Made by a program: the position numbers and the translations under genes | In this document: piece after piece, positions 7,763 to 40,044 of the stretch | Position numbering within the stretch: the stretch's first letter is position 1 | Layout: each line of letters begins with the position of its first letter | Notes under the pieces: model-generated | Told to the model about the DNA's origin: nothing | What the model saw: the letters and a program-made list of their open reading frames with translations, nothing else | Database searches by the model: none | Assembly (NCBI GenBank): GCA_016188495.1 | Contig: JACPHU010000006.1 | Span: forward strand, 1,857 to 65,856 | Direction: 5' to 3' | DNA length: 64,000 nt | DNA from: Candidatus Uhrbacteria bacterium | Lineage (GTDB): Bacteria > Patescibacteriota > Patescibacteriia > UBA9934 > GWF2-40-263

Positions 7763-7859
7763 CGACAAAAACCGTTGACAAAATCGTTAAAATAGTCCAT
7801 TATTTAATGTTTTGTCGTTCTTTACATCGGTTGAAAAACTTTGCAATGAGAGGTGTTCC

Positions 7860-9011
7860 ATGTCTGACGAATTGTTTGATCGCGGCCTTGTGCCCATTTC
7901 GGGCGATCCGGTCACCAATGGCCATGTTGATTTGATCGCTCGGGCTTCCAGAAAATGCAAAACATTGCTTGTCTTGGTTGCCAACAATAAGACAAAGACT
8001 GATAAATATCTCTTTTCACTTGAAGAGCGTCTGGAGATCGCTCGACGAGCTCTTTCGCATCTGCCAAATGTAGAGGTGGTTGCCAGTAGCGGGCTTCTTG
8101 TGGATGTTTTTATGGAGCAGGGATGCGACCGGGTGTTCCGAGGGATCAGGAACGAGGAAGATCGCGCGTATGAACTTCATCTTGCTTCTCTTAACAACAC
8201 CCTGTTTCCTGGGTTAGGGGAGAAGTTTGAGTTTTTGTTGGCGCCTCCGGAACTGACACATGTTTCGAGTTCCTTGGTAAAAGAACTCGTCCTTCAGAGG
8301 GTCGATGTTTCTCGCTTCGTTCCTATCTTCATTAAAGCTCTGCTTGAGGTGAGGTTGCGAGGACAGACGATGATCGGGATTACTGGTGGAATTGCCAGCG
8401 GTAAGACGTGGGTTGGAAAACAGCTTGCTTATAGGCTCGGAGGAACTTACCTCAATTTTGATGATTTGATCAGGGAGCTCTATGAGGAATCCTCTCGTGG
8501 GGCTCAAATGGTTCGCAATGAATTGGCAAAACTCTTCGGATCAGATGTGTTGAGTGGTGACGGAATTCACGTTGATCGAGACGTTCTCAAGAGACGTATT
8601 TTCACTCATTCGTCTTCCGACGAAATGATGAAAAAGGTTGTTGAACTGACGTCTCCGCATGTGATGCGGCTCTACCGACAAAAACTGACCCAAGCAAAAG
8701 GGTTTGTGATCGTCGAGTGGGCGCAGATGGCGCAGATGGAAATGAGTTATCTCGTTAACCATCAAGTCATCGTCGTTGAGGCCGCTGATCGAGAAGTGTT
8801 TCTTCAGAAACGCGGTATCGATCAGGAAGCGTTTACTCGCGTTTCTTCTCATCAATGGGGTGCTCAACGACAGGTAGAAGCACTTCAAACAGTGATTGAT
8901 CGTGACGGGTATGGCAAGGTTTTGTCATATGAAAACCACTATGATCCCGTTCAATCAGATGAGGGTTTGGCAGGACTAGTAGATGCGATTAGAGGTCTTG
9001 TTGTTTTCTAA
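7860..9011 (+). CDS. coaDE: Bifunctional phosphopantetheine adenylyltransferase / dephospho-CoA kinase (CoaD-CoaE fusion)
   Basis: The N-terminal ~165 aa is PPAT (PISGDPVTNGHVDLI, RGIRNEEDRAYELHLASLN, SSSLVKEL). The C-terminal ~215 aa is DPCK with a Walker A (MIGITGGIASGKTW). The start at ATG 7860 follows a GAGAGG RBS. The ORF track starts 48 nt earlier. Confidence 0.85.
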   Translation: MSDELFDRGLVPISGDPVTNGHVDLIARASRKCKTLLVLVANNKTKTDKYLFSLEERLEIARRALSHLPNVEVVASSGLLVDVFMEQGCDRVFRGIRNEEDRAYELHLASLNNTLFPGLGEKFEFLLAPPELTHVSSSLVKELVLQRVDVSRFVPIFIKALLEVRLRGQTMIGITGGIASGKTWVGKQLAYRLGGTYLNFDDLIRELYEESSRGAQMVRNELAKLFGSDVLSGDGIHVDRDVLKRRIFTHSSSDEMMKKVVELTSPHVMRLYRQKLTQAKGFVIVEWAQMAQMEMSYLVNHQVIVVEAADREVFLQKRGIDQEAFTRVSSHQWGAQRQVEALQTVIDRDGYGKVLSYENHYDPVQSDEGLAGLVDAIRGLVVF

Positions 9012-9860: not shown

Positions 9861-10586
9861 ATGGCTCGACATTCACATTGGCACAATATTCAATTGACCA
9901 AGGGAAAAGCGGATGCCAAACGCGCACAATCCTTTGCGAAATTAGCAAAGTCTCTTACCGCTGCCGCAAAAGAAGGAGGAAGCGATCCTGCATTTAATGT
10001 GTCTTTACGGATGGCCATGGATGCCGCGCGTGCGGCGAACATGCCTAAGGACAATATTGATCGTGCGATTGCTTGCGCAACAGGGGAGGGTGCGGAAGGG
10101 GTTTCCATTGAAGAGATTTTGTATGAAGGATTTGGACCGGGCGGATCGGCCCTTCTGATACAATGTCTGACAGATAATCGAAATCGATCCGTCACAGAGG
10201 TCCGCACTATCATGAATAAAAATGGAGGAACGATGGCAAGTCCCGGGTCTGTGAAATGGCTTTTTGAGAAAAAGGGAGTGGTGATTATTCAAGATATTTT
10301 TTTGATTCCAGATCGTGAAGCATTTGAACTGGCTCTTATTGAGGCAGGAGCAGAAGATTTTATTCAAGTCAATTTCGGATTAGAGATAAGAACTCCTCTG
10401 ACTGATTTTAAATCCGTTCTTGATACCCTCGAGACATTTGGTATTTATCCCGGAGTCGCCGCTATCGAGCATCTTGCCAAAGATCCTGTCGAATTAGCCA
10501 AAGGCGATCGAGAGCTCCTTCATCGTCTGGTTGATAAGTTAGAAGAATTAGATGATGTAGAGACTGTTTTTACCAATGAAGAATAA
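9861..10586 (+). CDS. yebC: YebC/PmpR-family transcriptional regulator
   Basis: It starts with MARHSHWHNIQ..KGKADAKR, the canonical YebC N-terminus. The ORF track begins at an in-frame TTG at 9843. Confidence 0.9.
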   Translation: MARHSHWHNIQLTKGKADAKRAQSFAKLAKSLTAAAKEGGSDPAFNVSLRMAMDAARAANMPKDNIDRAIACATGEGAEGVSIEEILYEGFGPGGSALLIQCLTDNRNRSVTEVRTIMNKNGGTMASPGSVKWLFEKKGVVIIQDIFLIPDREAFELALIEAGAEDFIQVNFGLEIRTPLTDFKSVLDTLETFGIYPGVAAIEHLAKDPVELAKGDRELLHRLVDKLEELDDVETVFTNEE

Positions 10587-10750
10587 GAGACATCTCCAAA
10601 ACTCGCGATCTTGCCTTTCACGGGCGCCCGCCCGCCCGACTGAACGACGATCAATCCTGTTCAGTCGTTTGGGCGGGCAGCCTCCGCCAGAGGCGGATCT
10701 GCCTTCGGCATGACGTTCAAGGCAATCTCATCGAGTTTTGGAGATGTCTC
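10587..10750. repeat. MITE-like intergenic element (family B, copy 1) with perfect 19-bp terminal inverted repeats and a nested family-A GC hairpin
   Basis: The left TIR gagacatctccaaaactcg (10587-10605) is the exact reverse complement of the right TIR cgagttttggagatgtctc (10732-10750). The conserved shell cgcgatcttgcctttcacgggcgcc ... gttcaaggcaatctcatcga also occurs at 14499-14603. Confidence 0.75.
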
Positions 10751-10784
10751 TCAAGATAATTTTCTGTGAAGAACGATTAACACT

Positions 10785-11264
10785 ATGGAAGGACATCTTA
10801 TTTTAGGGCTTGATCCGGGATATGGACGTATGGGGTTTGGGGTCATTCATGTACAAGGAACGATGATTCAGCTCATTGATTACGGTGTGGCGACAACGAC
10901 CTCTGGTGATCGTTTTGAGAATAGATTGTTAAGTTTGGCAAACGACTTACAAGATTTATTCGTTCATCATCAGCCTCATGTGGTAGCGATTGAAAAACTT
11001 TTTTTTGGAAAAAGTTCTACTACAGCGATGAACGTGGCCCATGCTCGGGGAGTGGCTTTACTTATGGCCGCCCAAGCAGGAGTTCCTGTGTTTGAATTTA
11101 CCCCTGCACAAGTGAAGAAAGCGTTGACTGGAGATGGGAAAGCAGGGAAAGCGGCTATGCAGCAGATGATCAAGAAACTCTTGGATTTGTCCAATATTCC
11201 AAAACCTGACGATGCAGCAGATGCCCTAGCTATTGCGATTACCGCCAGTACAAAAAAATGGTAG
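10785..11264 (+). CDS. ruvC: Holliday junction resolvase RuvC
   Basis: It has the LGLDPGYGRMGFGV N-terminus and the C-terminal acidic DDAADALAIA motif typical of RuvC. Confidence 0.9.
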   Translation: MEGHLILGLDPGYGRMGFGVIHVQGTMIQLIDYGVATTTSGDRFENRLLSLANDLQDLFVHHQPHVVAIEKLFFGKSSTTAMNVAHARGVALLMAAQAGVPVFEFTPAQVKKALTGDGKAGKAAMQQMIKKLLDLSNIPKPDDAADALAIAITASTKKW

Positions 11265-11299
11265 GAATTCTCTTGATCGGAGCTATTGCACCAAAAGAG

Positions 11300-11456
11300 G
11301 AAATACGTTAGTATTTTGAGGCAAATTAGGACTGCTCCCGAATGAGATTGCAACGTTCGGACTGGCAGCCTCTGAAAACGACCTGAGTCGGTCGTTGAAG
11401 AGGTGTCAGGGTGCCTGAACGTTGCAAGATCGCTCATTAGTGAACAGTCCTGATCC
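11300..11456 (+). ncRNA. candidate rod-like structured RNA immediately upstream of tRNA-Gly (6S-like architecture, identity unconfirmed)
   Basis: A ~33-bp imperfect duplex forms between 11318-11350 and 11413-11450, interrupted by small internal loops. It encloses a 14-bp apical hairpin (cctctgaaaacgacc/ggtcgttgaagagg). There is no ORF. Confidence 0.3.
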
Positions 11457-11532
11457 GCGGGTGTCGTATAGTGGCTCATTATGTCAGCCTTCCAAGCTGA
11501 AGAGGAGGGTTCGATTCCCTTCACCCGCTCCA
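11457..11532 (+). tRNA. tRNA-Gly (anticodon TCC)
   Basis: The cloverleaf folds by hand: acceptor GCGGGTG/CACCCGC, anticodon loop CTTCCAA, T-loop GGTTCGATTCC, then discriminator T and CCA. Confidence 0.85.
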
Positions 11533-11534
11533 AC

Positions 11535-11563
11535 AAAAAACTGATGAAATTCATCAGTTTTTT
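11535..11563. terminator. bidirectional intrinsic terminator
   Basis: A perfect hairpin ctgatgaa/ttcatcag is flanked by an A6 and a T6 run. It terminates tRNA-Gly (+) and the kinase gene (-). Confidence 0.8.
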
Positions 11564-11575
11564 GTTGGAGTATTT

Positions 11576-13849
11576 TTATGAGATCAATTTTTGTGTGCCT
11601 ATTTTCGCCGCCATGCCTTCAGACGGGATACTGACGACAAACGTGGATCCTTCTCCTATTTTGGAGTTGAAGCGAATAGTGCCTCCGGTATGGTTTAAGA
11701 TGGATTTGACGAGATAGAGTCCAAGGCCTGTACCATCCACATCTATTTCTTTGGCATTATCCGCTCGGAAGAGTTTTTTAAAAATATGTTCCTGTTGCAT
11801 TTTGGGAATCCCTATTCCCGTATCTGTGACGCGAATAAAAAAGTCTTTTTCGTCTTTTCGAATTTCACATTCTATTTTTCCATCGTGAGGGGTATATTTT
11901 ACAGCATTCGAGAGGAGGTTTTGGAAGATGATCATCGTGAGTTTCGGATCAACAGAGACCAAAGGGATGGTTTCATCAAACATGGTTTGTATGACCAGAT
12001 GCTTTTCTTTGATGATTGGATCGAGTTCTTGAAGAATGGTCTGTGCTATGGAATTAAGATTCGTTGGCTGCGGTTCAACCGTAAAGGTTCCTAATTCAAT
12101 TTTTGATACGTCCAGAAGAGCATTGATGAGCAAGGTCATTCGTTGGGTGCTCGCGTAGATTTCTTGGATGGTTGTTTTTTGTTCTTCTCCCAAATTTCCT
12201 TTATCACCTGCAAGAAGCATTTCCGCATTCCATTTGATAGAAGTAAGAGGTGTGCGCATTTGATGGCTGGCTAAAGAGACAAATTGCGATTTTGCGCGAT
12301 CTATCTCATCTTCCTTTGTGATATCCATACATATTCCAAACATTTTTAGAGCCTCCCTTTGTTCGTTGCGTTGAATATGTCCTATGGCCCGTATCGTGAC
12401 CGTTTCTTGGTTTCGAAGGATTCTAAATTTTATATCCATTTTTTTTTGCGGTTGTTCTATCGCGTCTTGGACTTGATGCACCAGACGATCGCGATCATCC
12501 GGATGCAGGATAGAGATCCAAGTTTGAAAAACCCCTTTCTCTCCCTTTTTTAAGTCTATGCCAAAAAGTTCTTCCAATAAATTGTCGTTTAAGAGAGTGT
12601 CTGTCAGCACATTCCATTCCCATGTCGCGATATTGGCTGACGTTGTCGCTAAAATAAAATGCTCATTGAGCTCTTCAAATTTGTTCTGCTGGTATTTGAT
12701 TTCCGTTATATCTTCTTCTGAAGCAATAAACCCGATCATATTTTGGTTTTCGTCAAAGATCGGACTATTGTGCACGATCGCGTAATAGATTTCACCGTTT
12801 TTTTTTCGATTGGTGATTTCTGTCGTGCTTGGGATGCCGCCGGTTTTCATGCGCCAAAAATTTTCATAGAATTCAACAGGCATGAGTCCGCCCCAGAGCC
12901 TGGGTGTATTGCCGATCATTTCATCTAACGTAAATCCTGTAATCTTTTCGGCCGCCTTATTGGCATAGTAGATCGTTCCATGTATGTCCGTGATCATGGT
13001 ATGGCTGCTTGAACTATCCAACGCTGTTCGAAAAATATCATTTTCTGTCATGGGCAGCGTCTTTTTTTGCGCGTCGTCGTTTTTAGTGAGAGCTTTAAAA
13101 AAATCCGCATTTTTTATGGAAGGATAATGTTCTTCAAAAACGCATTGCGAAGGATTGATGTGATGTTGCATCAGTATGCGATAGGCGTGGTCGATGAATT
13201 TTTGCGGTCCGCTTATGAGAAAGAGGGAATGGGCAAGATTATGTATCTGTGAAAGATCTGAGAATTGGAATAAACTAGTAGAGACTGATGCGGTATTTCC
13301 TTTTTGATTGAAAAGTTCTATTTCTTCTTCGTAAGGGGTCCGGTTTTTATTACGGTCGTAATGATAGAAATGGATCGGTTCAGCATAGGTTGAAAGGGCG
13401 CGCGTGCGCATGATGCATAGGAAAGGCGCCATCGCCACGCCTCCGGAAAGAAGGACGAGAGGATATTGGAATTCTTTTTTAAGTTGGAAGGAAATTCCAA
13501 ATGGACCGATAATCGTGACAGGGCTTTCTGGAGCAAGAGCAAGAAGCGTCTGTTTAAATCCACTCTCGCTTTTTCGGAAAAGAATTTGAATCGTTGTTTG
13601 TCCGATTTTAGGAGGATTGATGATAGAAAAAGCGCGACGGGATCCTTTTGGATCGGGAGCTATCAAACGAGGAAGATCCAACCACACGTATTGTCCAGCC
13701 AGATAGCTTATCGGATGTTCTAATTTGAACGTCGCTTCAAACGTATCCTCGGCCACTTCGATGCATTTTTTGAATCGGGCCGCAACATGTCTGTTGTCGT
13801 GCGTAAGCGTTATCATAAAAAGAAAATAAAAATCCATTATTGTATCCAC
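11576..13849 (-). CDS. Cytoplasmic hybrid sensor histidine kinase: N-terminal FNR-like FAD/NAD(P)-binding oxidoreductase module, two PAS domains, HisKA and HATPase_c
   Basis: FNR-like motifs are AGQYVWLDL, RRAFSIINPP and LLSGGVAMAPF. Two PAS segments follow. The H-box is SHQMRTPLTSIKWNAEMLL and the G-boxes are DTGIGIP...GTGLGLYLV. No TM segment is present. The first codon is GTG, with an in-frame ATG at 13837. Confidence 0.85.
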   Translation of the reverse strand: MDTIMDFYFLFMITLTHDNRHVAARFKKCIEVAEDTFEATFKLEHPISYLAGQYVWLDLPRLIAPDPKGSRRAFSIINPPKIGQTTIQILFRKSESGFKQTLLALAPESPVTIIGPFGISFQLKKEFQYPLVLLSGGVAMAPFLCIMRTRALSTYAEPIHFYHYDRNKNRTPYEEEIELFNQKGNTASVSTSLFQFSDLSQIHNLAHSLFLISGPQKFIDHAYRILMQHHINPSQCVFEEHYPSIKNADFFKALTKNDDAQKKTLPMTENDIFRTALDSSSSHTMITDIHGTIYYANKAAEKITGFTLDEMIGNTPRLWGGLMPVEFYENFWRMKTGGIPSTTEITNRKKNGEIYYAIVHNSPIFDENQNMIGFIASEEDITEIKYQQNKFEELNEHFILATTSANIATWEWNVLTDTLLNDNLLEELFGIDLKKGEKGVFQTWISILHPDDRDRLVHQVQDAIEQPQKKMDIKFRILRNQETVTIRAIGHIQRNEQREALKMFGICMDITKEDEIDRAKSQFVSLASHQMRTPLTSIKWNAEMLLAGDKGNLGEEQKTTIQEIYASTQRMTLLINALLDVSKIELGTFTVEPQPTNLNSIAQTILQELDPIIKEKHLVIQTMFDETIPLVSVDPKLTMIIFQNLLSNAVKYTPHDGKIECEIRKDEKDFFIRVTDTGIGIPKMQQEHIFKKLFRADNAKEIDVDGTGLGLYLVKSILNHTGGTIRFNSKIGEGSTFVVSIPSEGMAAKIGTQKLIS

Positions 13850-27412: not shown

Positions 27413-28910
<1,498 letters not shown>

Positions 28911-33170: not shown

Positions 33171-34214
33171 TTAAGCAACTTGATCTTTGTTCGTCAATAC
33201 AATCAACTGTCCGCAGGCGGCTGCGATGTCGTCTCCCATTGTGCGACGAGTCGTTACAATACATCCAGAACTGTGAAGAATACTCATGAAATATTCAATG
33301 GCAGATGGGGTGCTGCATTCAAATTCCATGCCTGTAAGGTTATAAGGAATAAGATTTATGCGGATGCGGCCGATTCTTCGCACAAATGTGGCGAGAGCTT
33401 TTGCATGCTCAGGGGTATCATTTACTCCTTTGAGCATAACGTATTCAAACGTAAGATGGTGTCTGCGATTTCCAAACACGGACAGATAATTTTTTGCCCA
33501 CACTTCCAGTTTTGGAAGAAACTCATCGTAAGAGGTTGGGACAATTTTTTTACGCGTTTCTGCTATGGCACTATGAAGTGAGACGGCAAGGCGTACATGT
33601 GGCCATTCTTTATCTGTGAGAATTTGTTCCAGTCGTGGAAGAACCCCTACGGTTGAAACCGTAATGCGGGTGCGGCCAATATCGGTGTAGGTTAGGATGG
33701 TATTAAGCGTCTTTTTTACTTCTTCGTAGTTAGCCAAAGGTTCACCCATCCCCATGAAAACGATATTGGAAATACGGCTTCCTAACGTTGGATTGTGTTG
33801 TAAATACTGTTGCCAAAATCGGTACTGATCGATGATTTCATCTGCTAAGAGGCTTCGGGTGAGTCCCATTTTTCCTGTAGCACAAAATCCACAGCGCATG
33901 GCGCATCCTACTTGAGAGGAAACACAGATTGTCCATGCATCACGGTTATTTTTCATGAGAACCGTTTCAATCTGTTTCCCGCCCTCAACATTCAAAAGAG
34001 CTTTGTGTGTATCGCCATTTTTACTCGTTTGAACCGTTTGAGGCACAACGGACATCCAAGGAATTTGGGTGAGACCCTCACGCATTATTTTTGAGAGGGA
34101 GGTTACTTCGCTCCAAGATTCGGCAGACGAAAAAAGACCTTGTTCGATTTGTTTCCATCGAAAGGCTGGTTCATGTGGAAAAAGCGCTTCAAATTGTTCT
34201 CGTCGAGATGTCAT
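33171..34214 (-). CDS. rlmN: 23S rRNA (adenine2503-C2)-methyltransferase, radical SAM
   Basis: The Cys cluster is CVSSQVGCAMRCGFCATG. The downstream motif is GMGEPLANY. Confidence 0.9.
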   Translation of the reverse strand: MTSRREQFEALFPHEPAFRWKQIEQGLFSSAESWSEVTSLSKIMREGLTQIPWMSVVPQTVQTSKNGDTHKALLNVEGGKQIETVLMKNNRDAWTICVSSQVGCAMRCGFCATGKMGLTRSLLADEIIDQYRFWQQYLQHNPTLGSRISNIVFMGMGEPLANYEEVKKTLNTILTYTDIGRTRITVSTVGVLPRLEQILTDKEWPHVRLAVSLHSAIAETRKKIVPTSYDEFLPKLEVWAKNYLSVFGNRRHHLTFEYVMLKGVNDTPEHAKALATFVRRIGRIRINLIPYNLTGMEFECSTPSAIEYFMSILHSSGCIVTTRRTMGDDIAAACGQLIVLTNKDQVA

Positions 34215-34229
34215 AATATTCGTATTCTA

Positions 34230-34262
34230 TCAAAAATGAGCCAATTGGCTCATTTTATTTTT
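34230..34262 (-). terminator. intrinsic terminator after rpsP (minus strand)
   Basis: The hairpin atgagcc/ggctcat has a T-run on the minus strand. Confidence 0.6.
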
Positions 34263-34658
34263 TTACTCGGTTTTTTCTTCAGGAGTGGCTTTTGTTGCTT
34301 CTTCCGCTGCTTTGGCTTTGGCAGCGGCTTCTTCGGCTTTTGCCGTTGCTTCCTTTGCTTTTGTTTCTAGTTTACCTTGGCGTTTCTTTGAAAGATGAGT
34401 CGCACCGCGCTTTTTGCCTTCAACGATTTTTTCGTCGATAAGAAGGTTCCAGACGGTATTTGTGACTTCAGCCCCTTGTTCAATCCAATGTTTCAAGCGA
34501 TCTTTTTTGATAACAAGTTCGCGTGGATTTTGTCGTGGATTGTAATGCCCTAAGATTTCAGTGGTTTTAGCCCAAGGATCGCGGTGTTTTGGCATCACCA
34601 CAATACGATAGACCGGGGCGCGTTTTGTTCCGATACGGGAAAGTCGAATAGATTGCAT
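34263..34658 (-). CDS. rpsP: 30S ribosomal protein S16 with a Lys/Ala/Glu-rich C-terminal extension
   Basis: The N-terminus is MQSIRLSRIGTKRAPVYRIVV. The tail is KAEEAAAKAKAAEE. Confidence 0.95.
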   Translation of the reverse strand: MQSIRLSRIGTKRAPVYRIVVMPKHRDPWAKTTEILGHYNPRQNPRELVIKKDRLKHWIEQGAEVTNTVWNLLIDEKIVEGKKRGATHLSKKRQGKLETKAKEATAKAEEAAAKAKAAEEATKATPEEKTE

Positions 34659-34840
34659 AATTTGATGAGTTTTGAAGGGATCTATTGTCTAAACATGAGC
34701 GTGTTTGACGGATGAACCGAAGAATAGAGGAATAAAGGGTATTGGTCAAGGTTTAGTCCTTATAATCTTCTATAGCTTGCCTCGTATCTATTACTGCCTG
34801 AGTCTGCTTGCCGTGAGCCTGTCGAACGGTCGAAGGCCGT

Positions 34841-34895
34841 ATATACACCCTTCGACTCCGGTTCGTCGCAACGTTCCTCCGCTCAGGGAATATAC
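34841..34895. repeat. family-C ~48-nt repeat unit, copy 1 (forward orientation)
   Basis: It reads tatacacccttcgactccggttcgtcgcaacgttcctccgctcagggaatata. The same unit is at 48757-48804 and inverted at 48704-48745 and 49931-49976. It is bounded by tataca on both sides. Confidence 0.7.
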
Positions 34896-35024
34896 AGTTG
34901 ATACCTCGTCAGCTCGCGTGTAAGTTTATTATTTTTTTGTCAAAATATATTATTAAAATTATCTTTTGTTCTATATTTTTACAATAAATTAAACTTAATT
35001 TAGCTAATTAGTTGTTTGTTACTC

Positions 35025-35053
35025 TTGACAAAGTTGTCAAAATCTGGTAAACT
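35025..35053 (+). promoter_or_regulatory. near-consensus sigma70 promoter facing a 1.45-kb ORF-poor region
   Basis: TTGACA, an exact 17-nt spacer, then TAAACT, embedded in an AT-rich tract. Confidence 0.55.
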
Positions 35054-35069
35054 CGTTTTTGTAAATGAT

Positions 35070-36530
35070 CAATTAAGGCATGCCCTTTATAGTCATGTCA
35101 TCTCAGAAATCCGGAGGAATACTCTGTCCGTCGTGGTAGTCCCTGAGGGGAGCCTACCAAGGAGGAGAGAGACAACCTTTCCATCGAACTTCGCAAGGGG
35201 GACGAAGGGAGGGGAGATCAAGTGGTGTAACTGGGCCTTGGCTCACTTACTCCACACACCCGATCTCCACGATCTACATTCGGGCTTGCCCAAATCACTG
35301 GATCACACTTCTCCGGATTTCTGGGATGAATAGAGAAACCAAAAAAGAAGGAACATAAAATGAGAGTTGCTGCCGGTTTTGCTTTTATTGTGTGTATGGG
35401 CGTCATTTTTGTTGTCCTTACTTCACAAATTCGCCACGCCCAGGAGAGGGCGGCGGAATGGATATGTGATATGAAAACCTCCGACCTTTCCACTGTCGAT
35501 GTGCAGGTGAAAGGGAGGAGGTGGCAGGTTACCGCCATGAGAAGTGAAAACGGGGAATGTGTCCTTGAGGCGCGTCCCTAAAAAAAGACGAAGGAGGCAA
35601 GAACATGAAGCCTTTTTACTAAGGCTCGGTCTACTCTACGCCTTCCCTGTCGGCTTGACAGGGCGGTCTGGTCACCCAGATTGACGTATAGTTTTCCAAA
35701 CCCGAGGTGGCGCGGGGGACATGGAGGGTTCATGTATCCATAATAGGAAGTCTCTGGGGGACGTAAGTCCAAGTCATCGACCAGAGATGGATTCATACAT
35801 TGATGACCCGGCGTATCATGCGTGGGTTCCAAAGCGGAGCGTGGGGAAAGCGGACTATAGGGACTGACAGAGGTTCTACCCTATGGAAAGCAAGTACGTA
35901 GCAATTCCCGTTTCAAGGAACTCTCTCGAGCAGCACACGAAAGTCTTGTTTGCTCGAGACGTCGGCGGGTGTGAAAAACACGCCTGAAGGGTCGCGCCAA
36001 AGCATGGGAGCTCTAACAGGGACCTGAGAGCTCAGAGGCCTGGCAAGCCATCAGTATCCCAACAGGCTTTCTCTTATTTGAGCCTGCTCCGCTTTGATGG
36101 GTGGAGAAATCGAATCAGAAAAAACAGGTCTTAAGAGTTGGACCTCCTACCTTGGGTAGGTTAATCCGAATTCTACTACGGGTCGTGGGGTGGAAAAGCC
36201 ACCATGGGAACGACCATTTTAACCCACGTTTAAGAAAACGGGGCGGGTAGATATCAGACGTACTGATATCCTCTGTCCATTGAGATAAAATGGACAGCTT
36301 ATCACAAAAAGATGAGCAACAGGTCAGATGACTCCTGAATGGAAAAGTCATCATCATGAATACGGAGATTCATGAAAGACTATAAATCGTGGTTTGGGTA
36401 ACTCCAGGCCATACTCGCACGAGGCCCCTGGCCCGACCTTCAACGAAGGCATCCGGGGGCCCGTTGTACTTACCCCGGTTCGCCAATACGTTGTCGGCCC
36501 GGGGTCCTCAATTGAACGCTTAACTCAGAC
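35070..36530 (+). other. ORF-poor, hairpin-dense region (candidate large structured RNA, long leader or decayed genes)
   Basis: No ORF exceeds 105 codons on either strand. Its GC is higher than its AT-rich surroundings. It has many local stems, such as ccgggggcccg...cggcccgggg near 36455-36515. A strong SD aaggagg is followed by the 5-codon mini-ORF ATG AAG CCT TTT TAC TAA at 35616. Confidence 0.3.
35360..35581 (+). CDS. possible small membrane-anchored protein (73 aa)
   Basis: GAAGGA lies 9 nt upstream of the ATG. An N-terminal hydrophobic helix VAAGFAFIVCMGVIFVVL is present. Confidence 0.3.
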   Translation: MRVAAGFAFIVCMGVIFVVLTSQIRHAQERAAEWICDMKTSDLSTVDVQVKGRRWQVTAMRSENGECVLEARP

Positions 36531-36566
36531 TTGAGAATTCGATTGAGGAAAACAACAGGAGGTCTT

Positions 36567-36833
36567 ATGTCTTATCCGACGGACTGGGGATTCATTGACG
36601 AGCTCGTCGATGAAAGGGACCTTTTGCGTCCCGAAGATTATGGATTGGATGAAGACGAGGATTCCACTGATGTTCAGTGGGGTCTCGGAGATTTCTCTGA
36701 TGTTGAATGGGATCGACATCAGGAAGAGACTCAGACGCGCCTGAAACAAAGGCGCGAATGGGAGGCGGGTTTGAAAAAACTCGCTCGAGACGAAGCCCGT
36801 GCTGAGGCTCGTCAGGCACGGGAAAATCGCTGA
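36567..36833 (+). CDS. hypothetical small acidic protein (88 aa)
   Basis: AGGAGG lies 6 nt before ATG 36567. It has a D/E-rich N-terminus, a K/R/E-rich C-terminus and a hairpin terminator at 36853-36878. Confidence 0.5.
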   Translation: MSYPTDWGFIDELVDERDLLRPEDYGLDEDEDSTDVQWGLGDFSDVEWDRHQEETQTRLKQRREWEAGLKKLARDEARAEARQARENR

Positions 36834-36881
36834 CCACCACGACCTCAAACGCGAGACGAGACTAAGGATCTCGTCTTCAAA

Positions 36882-36920
36882 CAAAAACACACCTGGATTC
36901 AGGTGTGTTTTTGTTTTTTT
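36882..36920. repeat. palindromic hairpin bracketing the HicAB module (copy 1)
   Basis: It reads aaaaacacacctg gatt caggtgtgttttt. It is nearly identical to 37416-37448. Confidence 0.7.
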
Positions 36921-37146
36921 AGAGTAGTTTTTTAAATTCTTCAGAAGTGATTCCGGCATCACGGATAAATCGGTACATCAATCCAACACCAATTTCTTTA
37001 TGTAATGGAATAGTGATTGGTCTACGGTTTGGATCGTCTTTGTGTTTAAGTCGTACATGACTTCCTTTTTGTCTTACGACTGTATAACCAATTTTTGTAA
37101 ATGCACGCACAACCTGTTTCCCTGAAATTCCTGCTAGATCAGTCAT
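36919..37146 (-). CDS. hicA: type II toxin-antitoxin system HicA-family toxin (YcfA-like)
   Basis: The HicA consensus GKQVVRAFTKIGYTVVRQKGSHVRLKH...IPLHKEIGVGLMYRFIRDAGITSEEF is present. Confidence 0.85.
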   Translation of the reverse strand: MTDLAGISGKQVVRAFTKIGYTVVRQKGSHVRLKHKDDPNRRPITIPLHKEIGVGLMYRFIRDAGITSEEFKKLL

Positions 37147-37148
37147 AT

Positions 37149-37379
37149 CTATGCGCGGATAAAATGGAGACTAATGTTGTGTTTGGATTTTTGGTGTGCG
37201 CGTTTTGGGGTATCTTCTAAACAAAGTTGAATGGCTTCTTGAATATTTTCAAGGGCTTTATCCATCGTTTTTCCTTGGCTGTAACATCCTTCAAAAACAG
37301 GACATTCCACCCAATATCCAACAGAATCATCCTTATGAACTATAACAGGATAGTCGTTTACAATATGTTTGCTTAGCAT
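37149..37379 (-). CDS. hicB: HicB-family antitoxin (UPF0150)
   Basis: NDYPVIVHKDDSVGYWVECPVFEGCYSQGKTMDKALENIQEAIQLCLED matches the HicB N-domain. It is separated from hicA by 2 nt. The ATG at 37379 is preferred over the GTG at 37397. Confidence 0.8.
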   Translation of the reverse strand: MLSKHIVNDYPVIVHKDDSVGYWVECPVFEGCYSQGKTMDKALENIQEAIQLCLEDTPKRAHQKSKHNISLHFIRA

Positions 37380-37415
37380 ATGCCTTAAAGATAACACACA
37401 ACGTTTATCAAAAAC

Positions 37416-37448
37416 AAAAACACACCTGAATTCAGGTGTGTTTTTTTT
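37416..37448. repeat. palindromic hairpin bracketing the HicAB module (copy 2)
   Basis: It reads aaaaacacacctg aatt caggtgtgtttttttt and contains GAATTC. Confidence 0.7.
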
Positions 37449-37734
37449 AAAATTCCAGTGGAATGTTTGCGTGTCTGGCGAGTTGTTTTACAAACCCTTC
37501 GAGTCTATCGTACTTGGCTCGCAAGGCAACCAATTCTGTATCCAGTTTTTGATGCAATACAACAAAACCATCTACATGTGTCATGATTTCCGTTTTTGTT
37601 TCTAAAAGAGTTTGTTGAAATTCATCTCTGGTGACCATTCTCTCTTTGAGAAACTCAACAATGTTTAAGATGTCATTCATGGTTTGTTCTTGGTTCATAC
37701 ATTCAAAGCTTAGCATGTTTCCAGTTATATTCAA
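37447..37734 (-). CDS. hypothetical coiled-coil protein (95 aa)
   Basis: It is an intact ORF between smc and the hicAB flank, with an alpha-helical charged sequence. Confidence 0.45.
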   Translation of the reverse strand: MNITGNMLSFECMNQEQTMNDILNIVEFLKERMVTRDEFQQTLLETKTEIMTHVDGFVVLHQKLDTELVALRAKYDRLEGFVKQLARHANIPLEF

Positions 37735-37770
37735 AAACCAATTTTTCTACTACTTTATGACTCTATTTTT

Positions 37771-40044
37771 TTATCTTCTCGCCGTTGCTCCGCTTGTCAC
37801 GTCTTCCAAGTGAATAGACAGAAGGTTTGAGATCCCTTCTTCACCCATGGTCACTCCGTACAGAACATCGGCTTGTTCCATAGTCGCACGGTTGTGAGTA
37901 ATGATGATGAACTGGGAGTTCTTGGAGAGTTCTTGAAGGATCGAGGCAAAACGGATGGTGTTGGATTCGTCCAGTGCCGCGTCTACTTCATCCAAGAGTA
38001 CAAATGGAGAGGGATTTACGGCCATGATCGCGCTGATGAGGGCGATAGAGGTCAACGCACGTTCTCCTCCAGAGAGAAGATTGAGTGCTTTGAGTTTTTT
38101 GCCGGGAGGCGTGGCTTGAATTTCTACACCGATGATTGGATCTTGATGTTTTTCAAGTTTTTCTTCTATGAGTTCCTCTTTTCCTCGAGCTTCCTCACCC
38201 GTGTCTGAGAACGCACGCTCTGCGGAAACTTCCGTTTCTGGTTCAGGGAGAAGTTCTTCGCGCGTAAGTTTTACCAAAGCGCAAGATCCTCCTCCGAAAA
38301 GCATTTTGAAATACCGTTCGAATTCTTTGTTGATTTTTTGAAAGATCGTCTTAGATTGCTTATCGATTTGTTCGTCTAATTCTTCGATTACCTGTTCGGT
38401 CGCTTTGATTCCTTTTTTTAAATCGTCGATCTGTCCATCTAAGAATTCGTAGCGTTCACGGGTCTCTTCATATTCTTTCATGATTTCCGGATCGATTCCC
38501 CCGATGATTTCAAGTTTATAACGCAGTCGTTGGATTTCGCTGTAGACATCGGCGGGTTGGGGCGAAGCCTGTTCCTGGGTTGGACGGTTGGATCGAATCA
38601 CGACCGCGCGTTCTTTCAGAAATTCATTCATTTCTCGGATGAGTCCTTGCTGGCGTTCCTCAAATCGCGCTAGGTTGATCTGCATGTCATTACGGCGATT
38701 TTCAAATAAATGGATTTGTCGTTGTTTTTCGCGCAACGCCCGTTGGGTTTCAATGAATTCCGTGCGTTCGGTTTTTTCCTGCTTGGCGTAAGCGTCTATC
38801 TGTGTTTCCAAGACTTTTTGTTCCTGTTCAGCGACTCGTTCTTGTTCTTTGAGATCTTTCAATTTTTGTACAAGGATAGGATCCGGTTTGATGTCTTCTG
38901 GATTGGGACGTTGAAGATTTTTAGAAAGCTTACCGGAGCGTTCCAAGAGGGCGTCGATTTTTTCAAGAATTTCAGAGAGTTCTTTTTTGTCTTTAAGTTG
39001 GCGTAATTCTTCTACGAGCCAATCGACTTCTTGCACGATTTTTAACAGCGGCAATGGAGCCCAATTGGATTGCGCCCGCACACGTGCGAGTTCGATGTTT
39101 TTTTCGGTTTGGAATTGTTCATTGCGGAGGTTGCTGTGCTTTTGCTGCGCTGCGCGATAGGCTTGCTGCAGCTTGATCAACCCCTCGTCTGGCGCCTGAT
39201 CGACCTGTTCGAGCTTATCGACGGCAGCTTCCAGCTCCGTGAGTGCTTTTCTTTCCAGTTTGATCGCATCGTTGCTTTGTTCAAACTGATGTTTTGCCTG
39301 TTCTAATTGATCGATTAATGTCCACCATTGGTCTCCATAATAGAGAGTTTCCAGTGTATGAAGTTGTGTTTGTACTTCTTCCCGCTGCTCAAGCCGGCTT
39401 ACTTGTCTTTTGAGCGAACGCAATCGCGGTTCGATTTCGCGCAATAACATCTCGACGTCGATTAAGTTTTCATGCGTGCGTTTGAGTTTTAAAATCGCTT
39501 CATGCCGTTTGATCTGAAAGGGCTTAACGCCTGTGGCATCATCAAAAAAAGCTTTGCGTTCCTCAGGGGTGGAGACCAAAATGTGATCAATCATGCCTTG
39601 ACCTACGACCGAATACGAACGTTGACCGACATTGGCTTGAGCTAAAAGCAAATGGATATCCTGTAGACGCGCGTGCGTTTCGTTGAGAAGATATTCAGAC
39701 GTTCCATCTCGAAACAAGCGGCGAGTAATCGTGACATGGGGATATTCAATCGGCATGGACGAGTCTTCGTTATTGAGACAGATGCTGACTTCTGCAAAAC
39801 CGGCTCGTCCTTTTCCTTCAGAACCCGAAAAGATGACATCTTCAGAATTTTTTCCACGCAGCAATTTGAGACTCTGTTCCCCCAAAACCCACCGGATGGC
39901 ATCAGCAAGATTGGATTTTCCCGACCCGTTGGGTCCCACAATCGCGGTAATGGGTGTTCGATCCTCGGTGGGTGGCAGGAAAGAAAGAGCTGTTTTTTTT
40001 GCAAAGGTTTTAAACCCCTGGAGTTCGATTTTCGTCAGATGCAT
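37771..40044 (-). CDS. smc: SMC-family ATPase, short form (757 aa) without a recognizable hinge domain
   Basis: The N-terminal Walker A is ITAIVGPNGSGKSNLADAIRWVLGEQS. The C-terminal signature is LSGGERALTSIALISAI with Walker B VLLDEVDAALD. The ~400-aa middle is pure coiled coil with no Gly-rich hinge and no CxxC hook. Confidence 0.8.
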   Translation of the reverse strand: MHLTKIELQGFKTFAKKTALSFLPPTEDRTPITAIVGPNGSGKSNLADAIRWVLGEQSLKLLRGKNSEDVIFSGSEGKGRAGFAEVSICLNNEDSSMPIEYPHVTITRRLFRDGTSEYLLNETHARLQDIHLLLAQANVGQRSYSVVGQGMIDHILVSTPEERKAFFDDATGVKPFQIKRHEAILKLKRTHENLIDVEMLLREIEPRLRSLKRQVSRLEQREEVQTQLHTLETLYYGDQWWTLIDQLEQAKHQFEQSNDAIKLERKALTELEAAVDKLEQVDQAPDEGLIKLQQAYRAAQQKHSNLRNEQFQTEKNIELARVRAQSNWAPLPLLKIVQEVDWLVEELRQLKDKKELSEILEKIDALLERSGKLSKNLQRPNPEDIKPDPILVQKLKDLKEQERVAEQEQKVLETQIDAYAKQEKTERTEFIETQRALREKQRQIHLFENRRNDMQINLARFEERQQGLIREMNEFLKERAVVIRSNRPTQEQASPQPADVYSEIQRLRYKLEIIGGIDPEIMKEYEETRERYEFLDGQIDDLKKGIKATEQVIEELDEQIDKQSKTIFQKINKEFERYFKMLFGGGSCALVKLTREELLPEPETEVSAERAFSDTGEEARGKEELIEEKLEKHQDPIIGVEIQATPPGKKLKALNLLSGGERALTSIALISAIMAVNPSPFVLLDEVDAALDESNTIRFASILQELSKNSQFIIITHNRATMEQADVLYGVTMGEEGISNLLSIHLEDVTSGATARR

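Follow-up and report, generated by a model that had tools for sequence, protein, structure and literature searches.

Two previously undescribed structured RNAs between rpsP and smc in Candidatus Uhrbacteria

The window analysed here is a stretch of 64,000 nucleotides (nt) from contig JACPHU010000006.1 of a Candidatus Uhrbacteria bacterium (assembly GCA_016188495.1), and the feature under study is a region at 35025-36530, poor in open reading frames (ORFs), that lies behind a promoter diverging from rpsP. Two previously undescribed structured RNAs are encoded there, module A of about 238 nt and module B of about 940 nt. As far as sequence can establish it, folding and comparison with relatives show that A and B are conserved RNAs folded on the + strand, that B is non-coding, that the promoter and a mini-ORF inside B are conserved, and that B is independent of the genes downstream of it. 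A previous, sequence-only reading of the region had considered a large non-coding RNA, a long leader for the downstream acidic-protein gene, or a decayed gene block. The first of these was right in that the region is structured and stands behind a genuine promoter, but it consists of two modules plus a 73-amino-acid (aa) gene and not of one long RNA; the other two do not agree with what was found in the relatives, as described below.

Modules A and B and their promoter

RlmN, which is encoded nearby, shares 74-76% identity with proteins from Candidatus Uhrbacteria and Parcubacteria metagenome-assembled genomes. Nucleotide searches of syntenic loci resolved the region into two separately conserved blocks, A at 35095-35332 and B at about 35609-36549. 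Both have homologs in related Uhrbacteria genomes and metagenome contigs (designated here by L numbers), at the corresponding location between rpsP and smc, and all B loci that reach far enough lie between these two genes, on the strand opposite to both. Relatives were collected by scanning metagenomes with a 21-base invariant stretch of B, which returned ten contigs, and further loci were added through S16 homologs. The resulting B set comprises nine distinct full-length sequences (the window, L020, L026, L022, L004, L006, L021, L029 and L025), besides a partial one in L037 and a doubtful, divergent one in L030, and the A set likewise has nine members (the window, L020, L035-37, L004, L005, L021, L040, L030 and L038). 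B is found without A in L006, L026 and L029, and A without B in L038; because the two occur independently and the spacer between them is variable and coding, a single 1.45-kb RNA was discarded as a candidate. Judging from the sequences collected, the family is confined to one clade of Candidatus Uhrbacteria, which are tiny, uncultured members of the candidate phyla radiation (CPR). Phage and plasmid collections searched with blastn and viral contigs scanned with exact patterns for the A and B cores gave no match, and the idea of a phage or plasmid element, having no evidence in its favour, was given up. Complementarity of A or B to the 16S rRNA of the window amounted to chance 9-10-mers only.

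The predicted sigma-70-type promoter (35024-35053, + strand) is made up of CTTGACA (-35), a 17-nt spacer and an extended -10 element, TGgTAAACT, and was the top site of the region in a consensus scan (10/12 plus the TG). It is the TTGACA-17-TAAACT promoter that had been picked out before at 35025-35053, and it recurs: the 30-mer CTTGACAAAGTnGTCAAAAnnTGGTAnAnT, with up to 6 substitutions, occurs, on the strand of A and B, at about 14 distinct loci of relatives (L020, L021, L022, L004, L005, L006, L026, L029, L030, L033, L035-37, L038/39 and L040), always on the strand opposite to rpsP. A promoter-like match in L011 stands in another gene context and was judged to be a generic strong promoter. 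The distance to the rpsP start (34658 in the window) is about 370 nt in both the window and L022, and that to B, owing to variable inserted pieces, is anything from 0.55 to 2.9 kb. In the window the order is promoter, A, the 73-aa gene (ORF73), B, the 88-aa gene (ORF88) and a terminator (36888-36920), all of which appear to form one unit driven by this promoter. The 5' end of B abuts an upstream ORF or a palindrome, and the sole conserved promoter is the one lying 0.55-2.9 kb upstream. Going by these loci, B would be the most constant product of the conserved promoter, and it has no tie to any one gene.

Module A is predicted to fold into a multi-branched RNA (35095-35332, +), in which a closing stem of about 22-25 bp, P1 (35095-35118 with 35308-35332), encloses four hairpin arms: P2 (35122-35171), which carries the invariant GGAGGAGAGAGAC, P3 (35180-35208), P4 (35213-35268) and P5 (35271-35304). 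The segment 35060-35360 has a folding z of -6.3 against shuffled sequences, with 0 shuffles as stable, and the minimum free energy of A is -117.6 kcal/mol. In an alignment of 5 sequences, 92% of the cells of 88 consensus pairs are paired and 29 pairs have changed on both sides, compared to 14.8+-2.5 in column shuffles (0/500) and 3-9 when the partners were slid; with 9 sequences, 31/77 pairs are compensatory. G-U and A-C cells in the consensus stand at 60:15. A begins about 20 nt past the -10 box in L035-37 and about 45 nt past it in the window, and in L022 its interior is missing, the base of P1 alone being kept as a hairpin. The genes adjoining A code for orphan proteins of 62-119 aa without Pfam matches, with no reverse transcriptase directly downstream. 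A retron msr-msd, considered on account of the long closing inverted repeat, was rejected since there is no adjoining reverse transcriptase gene.

Two further observations concern the 5' part of these units. A purine motif, GG(A/G)GAGAGA(C), is invariant in A (35165-35177 in the window) and is also seen near the 5' end of the island transcript in relatives without A (CAUUGGGGAGAGAGACCUAAUG), the loci concerned being L022 (about 11070-11058, -) and the leaders of L026, L029 and L030; conceivably, it is a common binding site for a protein or the ribosome. Between promoter and A, L004 (8521-9315, -) and L005 (8370-9153, -) have a stretch of about 0.7-0.8 kb with 69% identity and no ORF longer than about 100 aa, which is not present in the window; a leader, or a third RNA with structure besides A and B, may be encoded there.

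The evidence for module B (35609-36549, +) comes from folding, homologs and covariation. The segment 35580-36560 folds with z = -7.2 relative to shuffled sequences, none of which was as stable, so that both modules bear out the density of hairpins noticed earlier. The nine full-length sequences support a fold of 24 helices in about 940 nt, with 121 consensus pairs that are 91.9% paired; 54 pairs have changed on both sides, versus 27.3+-3.1 in column shuffles (0/500) and 9-16 with the partners slid by 1-3 columns, and the covariation score is 0.405 versus 0.06-0.09 when slid. Looking for covariation among homologs, as the sequence-only reading had suggested, thus gave strong compensatory changes in A and in B. 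G-U cells outnumber A-C cells by 134:15 in the B consensus, and this excess, common to both modules, indicates that the folded strand is the + strand.

The 5' domain of B extends over about 730 nt and has at least 19 helices and several invariant unpaired stretches. The most conserved core (35803-36052, +) contains a long-range helix, CCGGCGU/ACGUCGG, and the invariant GAAGGGUCGCGCCAAAGCAUGGGAGC, which is the longest invariant unpaired stretch of B; a hairpin loop of the core reads GCAA or GUAA (GNRA-type) in seven homologs. By eye, outside the formal counts, a candidate loop-loop contact was picked out between CCACC in the loop of the first hairpin and GGUGG in that of the second; L006 shows one compensated change in it. 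A covariance model of the core (R1) scores 153 bits in the window and 171-217 bits in eight relatives, and over 463 kb of related loci it detected nothing beyond these nine members, which indicates one B copy per genome. The B-like RNA of L030 is linked to the family by weak nhmmer matches (E about 1e-3), short common motifs and a mini-ORF with FPSWF; its core fails model R1, and it was not accepted as a full family member.

Between B homologs, the three codon positions have an even share of the substitutions (p = 0.34-0.89), without periodicity, and of the 18-28 indels in each pair only 2-5 have a length divisible by three. TAA, TAG and TGA stops are scattered over all six frames of the region. 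Its longest ORFs at 35025-36530 are one of 105 aa on the + strand (35016-35333) and a spurious one of 106 aa on the - strand (35218-35538); the claim that neither strand has an ORF over 105 codons holds for the former and narrowly fails on the latter. The GC content is 0.48-0.54 within the region versus 0.36-0.44 in the flanks, in keeping with the earlier remark that it is locally raised. A recoded or frameshifted gene was rejected on the strength of the stops in all six frames and the lack of codon periodicity, and a decayed gene block is contradicted by this same lack, by indels that are mostly not threes and by the strong compensatory covariation.

No resemblance to known RNA families had been recognised by eye, and the search with Rfam led to the same result. 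Rfam 15 (4227 models, including RNase P, transfer-messenger RNA (tmRNA), signal recognition particle RNA, 6S, group I/II introns, OLE, GOLLD, ROOL, HEARO, raiA and riboswitches) was run over 34600-37000 at the gathering thresholds and at E<=10 and returned only chance matches or terminator fragments; the homologs L004-L006 and L020-L029, with L021 also at E<=5, gave no family. ARAGORN found neither a tRNA nor a tmRNA at 34000-38000. Literature searches on Uhrbacteria, Patescibacteria and the CPR that covered large and structured RNAs, GOLLD, ROOL, leader peptides and integrons brought up no description of B.

Mini-ORFs, the 3' end of B and neighbouring genes

The linker that follows the 5' domain of B carries a family-wide mini-ORF (36364-36401, +), with a Shine-Dalgarno (SD) sequence GGAG at 36364-36367, 4 nt, and ATG to TAA at 36372-36401, coding for MKDYKSWFG. 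At the aligned place, 9/9 full-length homologs have an SD followed by an ORF of 9-11 codons with its start and stop, the other peptides being MKDYKMWFG, MANFPSWFG, MTYPLLFYDH, MTFPLLFYES, MTYPLLFYGH, MAYPLLFYES, MTYRLLYYDQ and MHFRPLLFYEF, and the frame is maintained despite a 3-nt indel, ATG or GTG starts and TAA, TAG or TGA stops. Codon changes in the YPLLFY core are synonymous or exchange Tyr and Phe, with the exception of one Pro-to-Arg change in L029. In the consensus of six sequences the mini-ORF is unpaired. The divergent RNA of L030 has MKLHIFPSWFFQP at the equivalent place and has FPSWF in common with L025.

Behind the mini-ORF, the 3' domain (36402-36504, +; about 100 nt) forms several hairpins from the segments GGCCCC, CCGGGG, CCCCGG and CCGGGG. 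CCCCGG pairs with a different flanking CCGGGG in two consensus folds (2:3 in one versus 1:2 in the other), and since the segments are invariant, covariation cannot choose between these partners. B closes with a terminal palindromic hairpin, UCCUCAA...UUGAGGA (36505-36549, +; UCCUCAAUUGAAC...GAUUGAGGA), in which helices 23-24 show compensatory changes. The 3' hairpins of B have no U-run after them.

The mini-ORF that had attracted attention before is a different one, MKPFY, at the 5' border of B. It does exist with its 7-nt spacer, about 10 nt before the place given for it (35591-35622, +: AAGGAGG at 35591-35597, then ATG AAG CCT TTT TAC TAA at 35605-35622). Its 3' part coincides with the first hairpin of B (35609-35626), in the loop of which its stop codon lies. 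Whether it is conserved in homologs had been raised as a question, and the answer is divided: MKPFY and its SD are kept only in the three closest sequences, the window, L020 (GTG AAG CCT TTT TAT TAA) and L037, and are absent from the other six B homologs. Elsewhere the stop of an upstream gene (L026, L025) or another tiny ORF (L022, L006) ends at this border.

Between A and B the window has ORF73 (35360-35581, +), whose product has two conserved Cys and a hydrophobic helix at its N terminus. L037 has a homologous ORF of 80 aa in the corresponding place (34% over 38 aa, E=4e-7), so that ORF73 is, on this comparison, a real protein gene. The slot itself is variable, and L020 has an unrelated 119-aa ORF in this place. 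Exact-protein look-ups of ORF73 and ORF88 returned the same contig only, and Pfam searches with both and with eight neighbouring ORFs from relatives gave no family.

Downstream of B, the acidic-protein ORF is present exactly as reported before (ORF88, 36567-36833, +; NCBI hypothetical protein HYV70_01675, Candidatus Uhrbacteria bacterium), and its SD, AGGAGG at 36557-36562, is unpaired in the predicted fold. Its only homolog after B is a 71-aa protein in L020 (52% over 50 aa, E=1e-9), and in a set of 5.8 billion proteins it had no homolog other than itself. Small ORFs follow B in seven full-length copies, of which just that of L020 matches ORF88; the six other ORFs, unrelated to it, were tested and belong to no Pfam family. 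In L022 and L029 an intrinsic terminator comes directly after the terminal hairpin of B, with no ORF, and the divergent RNA of L030 is likewise followed by a terminator and no ORF. Since the downstream genes differ and two full-length relatives are without any, B is not a dedicated leader for the acidic gene, contrary to what had been suggested. The unit of the window is closed by an intrinsic terminator (36888-36920, +), CACACCUG-GAUU-CAGGUGUG followed by U5GU7, and the weak Rfam matches at this position correspond to terminator parts of small RNA (sRNA) models.

Beyond the unit, a hicA/hicB toxin-antitoxin pair lies on the minus strand (36919-37397) and is bracketed by near-identical bidirectional terminator palindromes at 36884-36920 and 37416-37445 (AAAAACACACCTG..CAGGTGTGTTTTT). 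The closest relative, L020, is without the pair, so that the toxin-antitoxin module looks like an inserted cassette. Next to it, a 95-aa ORF (37447-37734, -; MNDILNIVEFLKERMVTRDEF...), which runs against the strand of A and B, is recognisable in two other islands, those of L004 (111 aa) and L021 (83 aa); no other island protein was seen in several subclades. Elsewhere in the window there is a complete 16S rRNA gene (27415-28910, -) and no 23S or 5S match across the 64 kb, so that the rRNA genes appear unlinked, as is common in CPR genomes. SAM-I riboswitches are found a few kb from rlmN/rpsP in L004 (13352-13456), L005 (14163-14265) and L021 (3809-3914), and the window has no SAM riboswitch at threshold. 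In L033, a related Uhrbacteria genome, a 573-aa protein with Vault, MVP-shoulder and Band_7 Pfam matches is encoded just downstream of rlmN (10019-11740).

The palindrome family and mobile-looking elements

The terminal hairpin of B (36505-36549 in the window) is one copy of a palindrome family of 41-45 nt, CCTCAAC-n6-CTCGAG-loop-CTCGAG-n6-GTTGAGG. In L021 (8040, 10187, 11075, 11653, 12229, 13041 and 13764), L026 (7438, 8279, 9085 and 11337), L025 (9790, 11233 and 11856), L006 and L005 the palindrome recurs every 0.6-0.9 kb or so between rpsP and smc, shortly after small orphan ORFs on the same strand; copies are also present in L004, L022 and L029. In four genomes one precedes B as well. The loci L021, L026 and L025 share an array layout with one promoter, orphan genes and a palindrome per unit.

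Such a layout recalls integrons, the attC sites of which have the consensus R'' RYYYAAC and R' GTTRRRY. CCTCAAC and GTTGAGG each agree with this consensus at 6/7 positions. Asymmetric spacers and extrahelical bases are typical of attC sites; here the spacers are symmetric, and no extrahelical-base pattern was established. A Phage_integrase-type Pfam match was absent among the called genes, in L001 (12 kb) and in L030, L033 and L038 (16 kb each), complete genomes not having been searched. As no integrase is among the called genes in 12-16 kb around four such loci, B is syntenic and single-copy, and the excess of G-U over A-C cells argues for selection on RNA, we treat the palindromes as unit-end RNA or DNA elements and not as proven attC sites.

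Two kinds of insertion were observed at these loci. L005 has a 527-nt insertion (7843-8370, -) exactly at the 5' edge of the closing stem of A, which consists of a 136-aa ORF and a degenerate palindrome, is flanked by a 10-nt direct repeat, TTCTTTCCAG (compare L004 8521-8530), and looks like a cassette gain or loss event. In the window, a GC-rich mini-element lies between rpsP and the promoter (34796-34890) and contains GTGAGCCTGTCGAACGGTCGAAGG, an exact 24-mer at 34813-34836. The same 24-mer occurs in L029 (1603-1626), inserted inside the terminal hairpin of B, and both Logan contigs of the locus start at about 34864, inside the mini-element; together these two facts suggest a multi-copy repeat resembling a miniature inverted-repeat transposable element. 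The Logan runs SRR12113418 and SRR12113419 contain the contig of the window.

The role of module B and its place among known RNAs

On balance we consider it somewhat probable that B is a stand-alone functional RNA with a ribosome engaging its linker ORF, and not the leader of one gene. The conserved strong promoter would transcribe A and B interleaved with small, fast-evolving genes. The 22-25-bp stem of A is long enough for an RNase III-type processing site, and cleavage there would release A. The 5' domain of B may bind a partner or catalyse a reaction, and invariant unpaired nucleotides like its own are found in RNAs that do so; B could then be a ribonucleoprotein scaffold or a sensor in the size class of OLE, GOLLD and ROOL. 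A ribosome would engage the aromatic-rich, SD-led ORF of 9-12 codons in the accessible linker, which would make B a dual-function or ribosome-coupled RNA, and the compact 3' domain with the CCUCAA...UUGAGG hairpin would close it. In its fuller form the proposal is tentative, and we offer it as a possibility: B would be a new class of CPR RNA of about 0.9 kb, in which a ribosome translating the mini-ORF, or stalled on it, couples the activity of the 5' domain to the translational state, and A would be a second new RNA released by stem cleavage.

Several points weigh against a stand-alone role. No partner protein for B was identified. The family is narrow, with nine full-length members, one partial and one doubtful divergent member in one clade, and the RNA of L030 does not match the core model. 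Transcription from the promoter, the ends of the RNAs and translation of the mini-ORF are all things that we infer, and the covariation controls leave some phylogenetic signal in. Taken as a whole, the linker mini-ORF has variable sites without a strong third-position skew, and in the window subgroup its last codons and stop form a hairpin arm, so that part of the "peptide" conservation may be at the level of RNA. Finally, 7/9 full-length loci have an SD-led ORF that begins some 15-110 nt downstream of B, which leaves room for a role in cis.

That role could be one of a leader-peptide switch, in which B, or its last 200 nt or so, responds to translation of the mini-ORF or stalling on it by remodelling the 3' domain, and in this way sets the expression of the next gene, or read-through into it (ORF88 in the window). 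An SD-led short ORF is indeed conserved in all nine full-length homologs, a ribosome would melt the hairpin that holds the end of the mini-ORF in the window subgroup, and the exchange of partners by CCCCGG between the two consensus folds would suit such a switch, as would the nearby ORFs just mentioned. However, the downstream genes are unrelated orphans and are missing in L022, L029 and the divergent L030, the SD of ORF88 stays free of pairing in the predicted fold, and the 3' hairpins are not followed by a U-run. A 5' domain of about 730 nt with 26-nt invariant stretches far exceeds the needs of an attenuator, and the mini-ORF of six homologs is in a linker left unpaired, where no helix competes with it; we regard a switch of this kind as unlikely. 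We give still less credit to the idea that B is an mRNA for an aromatic-rich micro-peptide of 9-12 aa (a signal, a toxin or the precursor of a modified peptide), the elaborate untranslated regions of which control stability or translation. It would explain why SD, start, frame and stop are conserved in nine sequences, with an in-frame 3-nt indel, why all changes in YPLLFY save the Pro-to-Arg are synonymous or Tyr/Phe, and why MKLHIFPSWFFQP in L030 shares FPSWF with L025. Yet the two subgroups of peptides, ..SWFG and ..PLLFYxx, are alike only in a loose aromatic pattern, there is no conserved gene for a modifying enzyme, an exporter or a receptor nearby, all island ORFs being without Pfam matches, and the RNA outside the mini-ORF is better conserved than the mini-ORF itself.

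Slighter again is the chance that B is a non-coding cassette of an integron-like array bounded by attC sites, its palindromes and folds acting in DNA recombination. The ending of B in a palindrome with CCTCAAC and GTTGAGG arms, preceded by another in four relatives, fits this notion, and so do the spacing of palindromes after orphan ORFs in L021, L026 and L025, the single promoter at the head of the array and the ORF-plus-palindrome insertion of L005 with its direct repeat. It is opposed by the lack of an integrase gene in the 10 kb downstream in the window and in the 16-kb loci L030, L033 and L038, by the single copy of B, always between rpsP and smc, which looks vertically inherited, and by R-L spacers that are symmetric and the lack of an established extrahelical-base pattern; the strong asymmetry of G-U over A-C, like the presence of helices at a distance from the palindrome, points to selection on an RNA. 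A pseudogene block or an artefact of assembly or frameshift, which might have been thought of in a region poor in ORFs and richer in GC than its flanks, deserves almost no weight, given that nine independent assemblies have equally ORF-poor homologs, mismatches are even over codon positions (p=0.34-0.89) and few indels are multiples of 3 (2-5 of 18-28), compensatory base-pair changes are abundant and the local ORFs are without Pfam match.

Returning to B as a stand-alone RNA, it is of the kind of large, ornate non-coding RNAs (>500 nt, covarying helices, non-coding), by kind and not by homology. To our knowledge, bacterial RNA classes of more than 500 nt are few, namely rRNAs, RNase P, tmRNA, self-splicing introns, OLE, GOLLD, ROOL and the IscB/HEARO RNAs. 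OLE, GOLLD and ROOL are like B in their size of 0.6-0.9 kb, many covarying helices, long invariant unpaired stretches and narrow phylogenetic range, and they too are set among, or co-transcribed with, genes for small and often membrane proteins, in a context that does not reveal function. B differs from them in that it matches no Rfam model at E<=10, has no oapA/oapB-type partner, prophage or tRNA context, resides in a CPR bacterium and carries a conserved SD-led mini-ORF, which OLE, GOLLD and ROOL are not known to have. With tmRNA, B shares a short coding segment in an accessible single strand between the domains of a structured RNA, which implies engagement of a ribosome. Unlike tmRNA, B has no tRNA-like domain (ARAGORN and Rfam being negative), its ORF has its own SD and start, its peptide does not resemble a degradation tag, and it is more than twice as long.

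Structured regulatory RNAs that encode a short peptide, as B does, include RNAIII/hld of Staphylococcus, SgrS/SgrT and SR1/SR1P; their peptides have 26-43 aa and the RNAs 200-500 nt, and B has neither homology to them nor a known base-pairing target. The trp, phe and his leaders and the attenuators of erm, cat and msr resemble it in an SD-led, residue-rich ORF of about 5-20 codons followed by GC-rich segments with alternative pairing. B, in contrast, lacks a conserved regulated gene, a terminator U-run and masking of a downstream SD, its ORF stands behind a conserved domain of about 730 nt, and three relatives have no downstream gene. With integron attC sites, cassettes and REP-type palindromes the locus shares a ...CAAC/GTTG... 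palindrome 3' of each small gene unit and one promoter at the head, and non-coding units are known in integrons; here, however, the palindromes are symmetric and, at 41-45 nt, shorter, no integrase turned up, and B is syntenic and single-copy. As Rfam models, a tRNA-like domain, a conserved regulated gene, an integrase and a reverse transcriptase all fail, B belongs by homology neither to OLE, GOLLD and ROOL nor to tmRNA, the dual-function sRNAs or the attenuators.

New large bacterial RNAs are rare finds, and several of the large RNA classes have brought surprises, among them catalysis, nucleases guided by RNA and cages built of RNA alone. In CPR bacteria, whose genomes are very small, non-coding RNA has hardly been explored. 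That one of their clades maintains a non-coding sequence of about 0.9 kb close to rpsP, with a conserved strong promoter in front of it and unpaired stretches that do not vary, speaks for an important function. The orphan genes with their intervening palindromes may represent a new type of variable gene-cassette locus in this group. The conserved mini-ORF embedded in B offers a concrete connection, open to testing, from a large structured RNA to the ribosome and, if this connection is true, a ribosome-coupled B would be a hybrid between an "ornate" RNA and a ribosome sensor like tmRNA or a leader.

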